This document shows positions 27,001 to 30,000 of a DNA stretch of 64,000 nt, piece after piece. The stretch lies in IMG/VR virus record IMGVR_UViG_2939521961_000004; one strand, written 5' to 3'. The stretch comes from a virus (Duplodnaviria; Heunggongvirae; Uroviricota; Caudoviricetes). The position numbers were made by a program. Within the stretch, counting starts at the first letter, position 1; the number at the start of each line of letters is the position of its first letter.

Positions 27001-30000
27001 CTGATATGGCACTGACGAAAAAACAACGTGCAGAGCTGCGCATGAAGTTCGGCGGTCGCTGTGCTTATTGCGGCTGCGAACTTGGCGAAAAGTGGCATGC
27101 AGACCATGTAAAACCGGTCATTCGTTTTGATGGAAATATGCTTCACCAGGAACGTGACGATATATCCAACATGGTTCCGGCATGCCACCCATGCAATCTG
27201 CACAAGCATTGCAGTAGTCTGGAAGATTATCGGCGAATTATCAGTGATGGTCGTCGTGAATTCCTTGCGTCCGGGAAAGGCAAAGCGCTGGTTCGTATGG
27301 GATTGGTTGAAATGAAATCTGACCCAGTTGTGTTCTGGTTTGAAAAATATCAAGAAGGGGCTACGGCATGACGACTTTTACCAGAGAGCAGTTAATAGCT
27401 CACGCAGAGGAGACTATTGAAACACAGAGACTGTGCATACCGGGCACAATCGACCATGACATCATCCGCACATATAAGATGGATATTGCTGTTCTGGAAA
27501 TCGCACTGGTATCGCTGGCAGCAGAGCCAGCCGGTAAATTGCATGAATACAAACCAGTGGGATATCAGCGTCTGGTCGATGAGTTAACCATGCTGGTAAA
27601 GCAGTTAACCTGGCAACTGAGGAAAGCGAAGCCAGACTGCAAATTACCGGATAAGGCGATGAGTTATCTGGAGCGGAACGGACTGATAAGCGTGGAGGAT
27701 ATTTTACGATGACCTGGCCTGAAGCATTCACAACGGTAGGAATTGCGATGGCGGTGGCGCTGGTGGTGTATTCGATTTGCCGCTGGGGATAAATCGCCGA
27801 AAAAAGATCCCGACATAAACATGAGCCGGGATCTTTGATTTATATAGCCTACGAATCCGCCAGTAAGAGAGGGGGCGGACGGTTAATTCTAACACCGGAA
27901 TGATGTGGGTAAAAGTTTATAAGAAATCGGTTTCATAACTTTGCCCACCATGATAGATACCGACAATAAAGACTTTTCTGCTATCAACGGCAAAAGCAAT
28001 AATCGTTCTGTGGCGGAAATGAGTTACCCGCATCCCCTGGCGAATATCATCGCGTTTATTGCCCCGATGCGGGAATGTAGAAAACCCATCAAGATAATCA
28101 AGAAGCGCATTGGCATAATTGTCAGCAATGACGTTCCCTGCTTTCTCCGTTATATACCTGTGCAGGTTGATTATTTGTTGTTCGGCCTCAGGAGTAATGA
28201 TGACTTCATATGTCATGCAGATTACTTCCCGGATCGAATCGCGGCGCGAACCTGTGAAATGGAGCGTCCGTTGTTTGGATTTTCGCGGATAGAATCAAGA
28301 GAGGGGGCGGCTGAATGCGTTAACCACGCTTCGATTGCTTTATCGCGCTCATTCAGTGCGCGAAGCCCTTCACGAATGACCTCGCTTTCTGAAGCATAGG
28401 CACCGGAAGCCACACGGGCGCGCACCATGTCAGCCATTTCGTTAGTTAATGTAATGCTGAATTGTTGGGTTGTACGCATGGTAAACCTCACGGAGTAGGA
28501 TAGAACACCATTCGATGATAGCACGTTGCCTGTTGACGACAACAGAAATCAGAGACAATATTGCCGCACGCCAGCTTGAACAACTGGCACCTGCTGCGCC
28601 AGCAGAGAAAACCGATGGCGCACAATACCAAACATCACAATTCTGATATCGCCCCTGCCAGCAGGCAAGGGCGGTGTTCTCACACATTCAAATATGACTG
28701 GTATCAGCACGATCCCTGCACTGAAGAACAGGCCGAATGGCTCATTCAGTGTTACCGCAGGCGCGGATGCGAGGTTAAAAAAGCCCTTAGCCTCGACTAC
28801 CGTCACTGGATAATCTCCGTCAGGCTCCCTTACTCCGAACGGCCACCGCGTCCGTCCCGCACATTCCAGCAACGGATCTGGAGGTAATGTGCGGGTATTA
28901 CTTCGACCTGTTCTGGTACCGGAACTCGGGCTGGTGATCGTTAAGCCGGGTCGTGAATCCATGCCGGTATTCCACAATACCCGGGTACTGGTGGAGCCGG
29001 AACCGAAAAGCATGCGTAATCTGCCGTCCGGGGTTGTTCCTGCCGTTCGCCAGCCGCTAGTGGAAGACAAAACATTGCTGCCGTTTTTCAGTAACGCACG
29101 GGTGATTCGTGCTGCTGGTGGTGCTGGTGCATTGTCTGACTGGCTGTTGCGCCATATTAAATCCTGCCAGTGGCCACACGGCGATTATCATCACAGCGAA
29201 ACCGTCATTCACCGTTATGGTACCGGCGCAATGGTGTTGTGCTGGCACTGCGACAACCAGCTGCGCGACCAGACATCCGAATCACTCGGGCAGCTTGCTC
29301 AACAAAATCTGACAGCCTGGATGATTGACGTCATACGTCACGCAATAAGTGGTGCACAGGAACGGGAATTATCTCTGGCTGAATTATCCTGGTGGGCGGT
29401 CCGCAATCAGGTGGCGGACGCGCTACCGGAAGCGGTATTACGTCGTTCGCTGGGGTTGCGTGCGGAAAAAATCCGCTCAATGTACCGTGAAAGCGACATC
29501 GTACCGGGAGAGCAGACCGCCACCAGCATACTGAAGCAGCGCACAAAAAATCTTGCGCCGCTGCCTCACGCTCACCAGCAAAAACCGCCACAGGAAAAGA
29601 CGGTGGTCAGCATTGCCGTTGATCCTGAGTCTCCGGAATCTTTCATGAAACGACCTAAACGTCGCCGCTGGGTTAACGAGAAATACACGCACTGGGTGAA
29701 GACACAGCCGTGTGCGTGTTGTGGTAAGCCTGCTGACGATCCGCATCACCTGATTGGTCATGGTCAGGGGGGAATGGGGACAAAATCTCACGATATTTTC
29801 ACGCTACCGCTGTGTCGGGAGCATCACAACGAGCTTCATGCGGATCCGCTGGCGTTCGAAGAAAAGCATGGTTCTCAGGTTGATTTAATTTTTCGTTTTC
29901 TTGATCACGCCTTTGCAACTGGCGTGCTTGGGTAAAAGAGGTGACTGATGCTCATAGATTTGGTTTTACCTTACCCGCCGACGGTGAACACTTACTGGCG

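Follow-up and report, generated by a model that had tools for sequence, protein, structure and literature searches.

In a stretch of 64,000 nucleotides from a tailed-phage record (IMG/VR IMGVR_UViG_2939521961_000004; hereafter the window), we identified a two-gene cassette, parDE, that lies in inverse orientation within the early operon of a lambdoid prophage and encodes an antitoxin of the ParD family and a toxin of the ParE clade. There is little doubt that the pair is a toxin-antitoxin (TA) system, and it is likely that the cassette as a whole functions as a working ParDE moron (as defined in PMC3594210). An initial annotation had placed a ParD/ParE pair at 27917-28479 on the opposite strand with a spacing of 5 nt. 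Both open reading frames (ORFs) were found exactly there, and profile searches bore out the proposed families: both proteins pass the respective Pfam cut-offs, and the antitoxin also passes that of TIGR02606.

The parD and parE genes

On the minus strand the antitoxin gene precedes the toxin gene (Table 1), with the parD stop codon (TAA, 28224-28222) and the parE start codon (ATG, beginning at 28216) separated by nucleotides 28221-28217. A mechanical ORF list prolongs the parD frame to a TTG codon at 28542, which would give a protein of 106 aa. We place the start at the ATG at 28479 because a GAGG Shine-Dalgarno sequence, kept in both the E. coli and the Salmonella variants, is found 6 nt upstream of it and because the N-terminus MRTTQQFSITL is invariant in the 20-27 aligned ParD homologs; the longer start was ruled out, as homologs begin with MRTTQQ and the extension falls in the promoter block.

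ParE matches the Pfam family PF05016 (ParE_toxin) at full length (1-89 of 89) with 40.4 bits, against a cut-off of 23. This family also takes in RelE-like RNase toxins, and because PF05016 alone does not fix the clade, we turned to structure. The AlphaFold2 model of the toxin (21 homologs; predicted local distance difference test score, pLDDT, 83.5) comprises a short strand, two long helices (residues 9-26 and 28-47), and a three-stranded sheet; a long helical hairpin of this kind is the feature that separates ParE from RelE (reviewed in PMC10886550). In a Foldseek comparison with the PDB, the top 22 matches to the model were all ParE-clade toxins, with template modeling (TM) scores of 0.63-0.73. 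The best was PfiT (9w3a), and the others include Mesorhizobium ParE3, PrpT, Pseudomonas aeruginosa ParE, Vibrio ParE2, Mycobacterium tuberculosis ParE1 and ParE2, ParE2 of E. coli O157, and Caulobacter ParE1. RelE, YoeB, YafQ, and HigB ranked below the ParE-type structures (TM at most 0.55) and were absent when a profile of the toxin family was compared with the PDB, which returned ParE-type chains only; by these comparisons the toxin does not group with the RelE-type ribosome-dependent mRNA interferases.

The toxin belongs to a subfamily with 1145 cluster representatives (E <= 0.001) and carries the subfamily core FPxRGxxRDD[IL]RPGLR. Residues R51, N53, K54, R55, R59, R63, H66, R68, H69, and R70 are invariant or nearly so and form a strongly basic cluster. 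Also kept is the conserved C-terminal motif HGGQxYE (GGQ/RDYE in the subfamily), and the toxicity of ParE proteins depends on the C-terminal ~10 residues (PMC10886550). Among the PHROGs, the toxin falls in phrog_5232 ("toxin", category moron).

The antitoxin matches PF03693 (32.1 bits; cut-off 21), TIGR02606 (53.8 bits; cut-off 46.2), and PHROG 6494 ("antitoxin", category moron; 189 bits). The profile matches span residues 6-51 only; the C-terminal half is, as expected, the variable part that is predicted to bind the toxin. Homologs of ParD are numerous (2657) and 55-65% identical across the Proteobacteria, and phmmer matches the protein to the ParD chains of 3kxe, 7ycv, 7b22, and 8c24. In its AlphaFold2 model (pLDDT 90.3), the ribbon-helix-helix (RHH) part superposes on solved ParD antitoxins, among them M. 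tuberculosis ParD1, Vibrio ParD2, and PrpA, within 1.1-1.6 A at 32-36% identity.

The two genes also remain together in other organisms. A ParD homolog is encoded immediately upstream of the toxin relative, on the same strand, in 16 of 17 loci from other species, including Salmonella, Yersinia, Paraburkholderia, Polynucleobacter, Desulfovibrio, Pantoea, Dyella, and others. Between the E. coli O111 and Salmonella variants of the cassette, the ratio of nonsynonymous to synonymous substitutions (dN/dS) is 0.09-0.11 for parE and 0.06 for parD, indicating that both genes are under purifying selection. Because both genes pass curated profile cut-offs and have dN/dS values of 0.06-0.11, the ORFs are not chance occurrences.

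Relative to the Salmonella copy (L008, 4738-5312), parE has a dS of 1.08 and parD one of only 0.34, a contrast that suggests either recombination within the module or separate histories of the genes. In Yersinia similis Y228 (L019, 5001-5129), a frameshift interrupts the parE homolog after ~25 codons, whereas parD, which is 80% identical, remains intact; the toxin has thus been lost and the antitoxin retained in a second case, independent of the orphan ParD described below.

Limits, signals, and distribution of the cassette

Two sister prophages (L004 and L005) have left flanks 98-99% identical to that of the pair but carry hokD and another ORF in place of parDE; L005 also shares the right flank, at 86% identity. 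Both are homologous to the window up to 27793, and L005 is so again from 28565 onward. On the right side, independent comparisons with the Stx2a phage ArgO145, with the Stx2a phages of E. coli O157 (PA2/VT2phi_272 type), and with a lambdoid prophage of Salmonella show homology breaking off at 28544-28562. Because these breaks bracket it, we take the 771-bp span 27794-28564 as the mobile unit.

The 3' end of the unit holds a predicted intrinsic terminator. As minus-strand RNA it folds into a stem of 12 bp (-18.5 kcal/mol, z = -4.1) that leads into a U-run, and the plus-strand hairpin is similar (-15 kcal/mol, z = -4.2), so that the terminator is potentially bidirectional owing to its A-run and T-run flanks. 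A pattern scanner overlooked this hairpin because its loop exceeds 8 nt. At the 5' end, a candidate sigma-70 promoter consists of a -35 element TTGTCG (28542-28537), a 16-nt spacer, and a TG-extended -10 element TATCAT (28520-28515). When cassette variants were compared, the promoter block was nearly invariant in those of E. coli and Salmonella and in the orphan, and it was partly kept in Yersinia. Over the -35 region lies a palindrome, conserved in four of five variants, which could be the ParD operator, by analogy with the autoregulation of RHH antitoxins.

With its own promoter-like site, two genes, and a terminator set between otherwise neighboring genes, the cassette is by its layout a textbook moron, predicted to form an independent transcription unit. 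The moron character proposed at the outset is thus retained: the unit ends just outside its promoter-like site and its terminator, and other genes fill the same slot in sister prophages.

Several other elements were observed in the cassette. A plus-strand promoter-like site (28533-28562; TTGACG, 18 nt, AATATT) stands back to back with the candidate parDE promoter (28515-28542), and the two -35 hexamers overlap inside the palindrome (CTGTTGACGACAACAG). The end of the plus-strand site coincides with the edge of the cassette; the site would point into the DUF968/RusA/Q genes, and even the Yersinia variant keeps its AATAT element unchanged. A direct repeat of 14 nt, AAGAGAGGGGGCGG, has one exact copy in the parE 3' untranslated region (27865-27878) and another within parD (28297-28310), against an expectation of 0.04 copies for the window. 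The Salmonella cassette, whose 3' untranslated region differs, lacks the repeat, and the O111 variant no longer has the copy in parD; we set the repeat aside as probably nonfunctional, and it is probably a recombination scar or a product of chance. A search of 27000-29200 against Rfam at a permissive threshold returned a chance microRNA match only, and hence no known RNA element.

The cassette is found at a coverage of at least 80% in 328 of 5426 complete E. coli genomes (~6%), always on the chromosome and in one copy, rarely two. Plasmid carriage is effectively nil in PLSDB, where the single near-identical match is a 1.4-Mb record. The identical cassette is also carried by the Stx2a phage ArgO145, accompanied by the ~2.6 kb of genes found ahead of it in the window; there it is situated a few kilobases from the integrase gene and thus in a genomic neighborhood other than the nin region.

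Host prophage and the insertion slot

The region 27700-28700 is 100% identical to many chromosomes of O26, O103, O145, and other E. coli that make Shiga toxin (STEC), and the 24 kb around the pair are 99.9% identical to strains such as War. E. coli E2865 shows the same gene order as the window over 38 kb, with 99.8% identity (window position equals E2865 locus position +7699). In the RefSeq annotation of near-identical genomes, every annotated gene from a cro-like regulator (~20921) to a DUF3927 gene (~33178), ahead of the lysis region, is on the plus strand except parDE, which agrees with the initial description of the pair as the sole minus-strand unit of a rightward operon. The pair is flanked by the gene for replication protein P and by DUF968/RusA/Q-like genes, that is, it occupies the nin-equivalent position. 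The carrier is a Qin-like lambdoid prophage of non-O157 Shiga-toxin-type E. coli; it has dicB, ydfC, and the DUF968/RusA/Q-like gene block in common with the cryptic prophage Qin of K-12. An IS3 element interrupts the integrase gene of this prophage, and the portal gene carries a frameshift, so that the prophage is probably defective.

The slot upstream of the DUF968 (ydfU)/RusA/Q genes is filled by different TA genes in related prophages (Table 1), and it looks like a TA exchange hot spot of Qin-like lambdoid prophages. No statement of this pattern was found in the literature searched.

The prophage encodes, as was also initially suggested, a second type II TA system, a HigB/HigA pair. The same two genes (19691-20355) match the PADLOC models PD-Lambda-2_A (136 bits) and PD-Lambda-2_B; of the 402 positions of the latter profile, only 1-119 are matched, and HigBA is not followed by a third gene. 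The pair may be a reduced relative of the PD-Lambda-2 defense system.

Among other genes of the region, a 27-codon plus-strand ORF (27709-27792) overlaps the stop codon of the gene upstream and terminates one base short of the left cassette junction. It would encode a hydrophobic peptide with no match in Pfam or PHROGs, and its DNA is conserved in parDE-bearing and hokD-bearing prophages alike. An ORF downstream of the cassette (28615-28887) was considered as a homolog of Rem, which is found in K-12 Qin, and discarded, as the two show no similarity. In the tRNA cluster downstream of the Q-like gene, the first tRNA is called Ile by PGAP and Met (CAT) by ARAGORN, followed by Arg-TCG and Arg-TCT.

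Table 1. Coordinates of the parDE cassette, of other features of the host prophage, and of related loci
Feature	Position	Strand	Remarks
parD	28222-28479	-	ATG start, 85 aa; ribbon-helix-helix ParD antitoxin; RefSeq WP_001260977
parE	27917-28216	-	ATG start, 99 aa; ParE-clade toxin; RefSeq WP_000220601
Shine-Dalgarno GAGG	28486-28489	-	6 nt 5' of parD ATG; read from the sequence
parDE cassette	27794-28564		771 bp; terminator, parE, parD, promoter; replaces hokD-type inserts of sister prophages
Terminator hairpin (predicted)	27803-27836	-	Intrinsic, for the parDE transcript; 10-nt perfect inverted repeat
Candidate sigma-70 promoter of parDE	28515-28542	-	Consensus scan 9/12 with TG
Palindrome CTGTTG-N4-CAACAG	28530-28545		Over the -35 region; candidate ParD operator
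HigB	19691-19993		Pfam HigB_toxin, 113.7 bits; second TA system of the prophage
HigA	19996-20355		HTH_3 match; second TA system of the prophage
EspF-repeat effector gene	11104-11856		End of upstream prophage; annotation transfer from E2865
Host prophage integrase split by IS3	12660-14991		Annotation transfer from E2865, 99.8% identical
tRNA cluster	32162-32413		Downstream of Q-like gene; annotation transfer from E2865
Orphan parD, VT2phi_272 (L003)	3020-3277		Equivalent to window 28203-28562
Slot cargo, window	27794-28564		parDE, inverted
Slot cargo, L004	2974-3500		hokD and another ORF
Slot cargo, L005	1967-3114		hokD and another ORF
Slot cargo, L007	1880-2940		hokD and phd/doc pair
Slot cargo, K-12 Qin (L025)	4652-5873		relB-relE-hokD

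Orphan ParD of O157 Stx2a phages

Stx2a phages of E. coli O157 (PA2, VT2phi_272, and many Japanese isolates) retain the promoter, parD at 87% DNA identity, and the first ~13 nt of parE, after which come an unrelated gene for a "lipoprotein" and one that is HigA-like. In 2025, "orphan ParD and HigA antitoxins" were reported without explanation in two enterohemorrhagic E. coli phages (PMC12502783), and the arrangement described there fits the PA2/VT2phi_272 type compared here. The shared DNA indicates that the orphan ParD derives from the parDE cassette by replacement of the toxin. All 13 amino acid differences between the orphan and the window ParD are confined to residues 48-85 (P = 7e-6), and the RHH half has a dN of 0 at a dS of 0.30; therefore, DNA binding appears to be still under selection, and the toxin-binding half has either drifted or adapted.

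Upstream of parD in ArgO145 (L002, 4845-4960) and VT2phi_272 (L003, 3342-3460) are regions containing GGGATTCGAACCCCGG, which resembles a tRNA T-arm; this could be what is left of an attachment site, or else a tRNA fragment.

Proposed mechanism and alternative explanations

ParE toxins inhibit gyrase and are often found in integrated phages (PMC10886550). Drawing on established ParDE biology, we propose that in a lysogen the extended -10 promoter of the cassette would drive leftward transcription that does not depend on the early operon of the phage, which is repressed. ParD would dimerize through its N-terminal RHH domain, bind the promoter region, and repress it, and its C-terminal helices (~48-85) would wrap around ParE and neutralize it. 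Should ParD synthesis stop, whether by loss or deletion of the prophage or by shut-off of host transcription, ParD, presumably labile, would decay, and free ParE would poison DNA gyrase, leading to DNA breaks, the SOS response, and growth arrest. The net outcome would be selfish retention of the cassette and of its defective carrier prophage, with the exclusion of other phages as a possible by-product. Because the integrase is split and the portal gene frameshifted, such retention cannot depend on phage function. A prophage ParE system, ParESO-CopASO, is known to maintain the excised CP4So prophage (PMC8706911). We further speculate that early rightward transcription upon induction, which would cross the cassette in the antisense direction, could lower ParD synthesis. 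By analogy with characterized ParE toxins (PMC10886550), gyrase is probably the target, though not strongly so; prophage retention as the main role is put forward tentatively.

Several points weigh against this interpretation. Addiction by chromosomal and prophage TA modules is debated in the field. NCBIfam contains no model that matches the toxin. Many ParE toxins have Asp at a helix-1 position where the close family invariably has Gln (Q14); of 121 subfamily representatives, 63 have Q there, 27 have D, and 9 have H. The parDE promoter is a consensus match only (9/12), with a predicted function, and the palindrome, with one match in the window, is not significant by itself, since 16% of shuffled sequences yield one. 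Lastly, there are ParE-clade toxins that do not act as gyrase poisons: ParE2 of E. coli O157 is reported neither to bind GyrA59 nor to inhibit gyrase (PMC10886550).

The main role could instead be defense against other phages, in which an invader that stops host transcription or degrades ParD would free ParE to block DNA replication. We regard this as unlikely, if credible. The cassette is a moron predicted to be expressed in the lysogen, its slot is filled in sister prophages by hokD, by phd/doc, or, in K-12 Qin, by relBE-hokD, and thus looks like an accessory or defense hot spot, the prophage's HigBA pair has matches to the A and B models of PD-Lambda-2 in PADLOC, and the orphan ParD of the O157 Stx2a phages (PMC12502783) could be a countermeasure. 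However, neither ParE nor ParD matches a family of PADLOC-DB v2 at E <= 0.01, the literature search yielded no ParDE system shown to defend against phage, and the sequence holds nothing that separates defense from addiction.

Equally unlikely in our judgment is a toxin that has the ParE fold but does not poison gyrase, acting instead on another target, in an attenuated or regulatory manner (as in O157 ParE2, PrpT, and PfiT), or as a RelE-like RNase. Target and potency vary among members of the ParE clade (PMC10886550), the top structural match is PfiT, a controller of Pf4 phage production, and both the near-invariant basic cluster R51-R70 and Gln14 in place of Asp would accord with a different activity. 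The long two-helix hairpin, said to set ParE apart from RelE (PMC10886550), nevertheless argues for a genuine ParE, as do the restriction of the profile search to ParE-type PDB chains and the canonical ParD partner.

A more elaborate proposal combines the observations above: the slot would be a dedicated exchange site of mutually antagonistic TA cassettes, the O157 orphan ParD would be a working antitoxin against ParE that serves in anti-addiction or counter-defense, and release of ParE, by poisoning gyrase, would trigger the SOS response and hence induction of resident Stx prophages, which would tie the small cassette to the output of Shiga toxin. Taken as a whole, this chain of events is quite improbable. 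Less probable still is that parDE regulates induction or production of its own prophage, as PfiT/PfiA does for Pf4. The structural resemblance of the toxin to PfiT, the modulation of Pf4 production by PfiAT (PMC7264888, PMC13048266), and the antisense placement within the early rightward operon, which may cause transcription to collide upon induction, are consistent with it. But the sites at which the cassette is found are unrelated (the nin region in the window, near int in ArgO145), its carrier looks defective, and it is interchangeable with hokD and relBE modules; a role wired into the circuit of one phage is therefore disfavored. Finally, although decay is known in the family, as in the frameshifted parE of Y. 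similis Y228 and the O157 Stx2a phages that lost parE beyond its first ~13 nt, it is very improbable that the pair in the window is an inactive remnant with no working toxin, given two intact ORFs, dN/dS of about 0.1, conservation of the promoter, the Shine-Dalgarno sequence, and the terminator, and annotation of an intact pair by PGAP in every record listed among the 328 genomes with at least 80% cassette coverage.

Comparison with known systems

The pair is an ordinary, already catalogued ParDE module: the exact proteins are annotated in PHROGs and in RefSeq, where PGAP labels WP_000220601 as "type II toxin-antitoxin system RelE/ParE family toxin" and WP_001260977 as "ParD family antitoxin". 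A literature search by these two accessions found no papers. Our additions are the exact limits of the cassette, its setting in a TA hot spot, and evidence on where the orphan ParD of O157 came from, of which only the last two are mildly new. As it stands, one more ParDE module, present in ~6% of complete E. coli genomes, carries little weight. If, however, the toxin does poison gyrase, its presence in STEC prophages and transmissible Stx2a phages (ArgO145) could help hold virulence prophages in their hosts, and activated ParE could raise SOS-dependent induction of Stx phages, much as quinolones do. The intact cassette also explains the source of the O157 Stx2a "orphan ParD" and supplies a concrete toxin that the orphan might counter.

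The relBE-hokD genes of K-12 Qin fill the corresponding slot, immediately upstream of ydfU (DUF968) and of the gene for the Q-like antiterminator, and encode a toxin of the same RelE/ParE superfamily and likewise an RHH antitoxin. They differ in that RelE is a ribosome-dependent mRNase whereas the window toxin is ParE-type, in that they are codirectional with their neighbors whereas parDE is inverted, and in that the inserts share no sequence similarity.

The paaR2-paaA2-parE2 systems of E. coli O157:H7 prophages (5czf, 5cw7) have three components, including a separate regulator, and their PaaA antitoxin is devoid of a DNA-binding domain, whereas the window pair has two genes and a classical RHH ParD. 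Their ParE2 is 18-19% identical to the window toxin and was not recovered in the sequence searches. A PaaR-PaaA-ParE system was ruled out for the pair, as the 771-bp cassette contains no conserved third ORF and encodes an antitoxin of the RHH ParD type.

A ParE-clade toxin and a DNA-binding antitoxin are combined within a prophage, as in the window pair, in two other systems, ParESO-CopASO of Shewanella CP4So and PfiT/PfiA of Pseudomonas Pf4, which are documented to maintain the prophage or to control the production of phage (PMC8706911, PMC7264888, PMC13048266).

The closest counterparts are the canonical ParDE systems. With RK2 ParDE, Caulobacter ParD1/ParE1 (3kxe), Mesorhizobium ParD3/ParE3 (5ceg, 6x0a), Vibrio ParD2/ParE2 (7r5a), M. 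tuberculosis ParDE1 (8c24), and P. aeruginosa ParDE (6xrw), the pair shares the antitoxin-first operon and an RHH ParD with a C-terminal toxin-binding extension; the toxin has the same ParE fold, with its long helical hairpin and conserved C-terminal segment. In contrast, the window toxin is only 12-24% identical to any solved ParE and has Gln rather than Asp at the helix-1 position, and instead of residing on a plasmid or superintegron, the window pair is a reverse-oriented moron of a lambdoid prophage. Even so, the canonical ParDE systems are its best matches in both sequence and structure.

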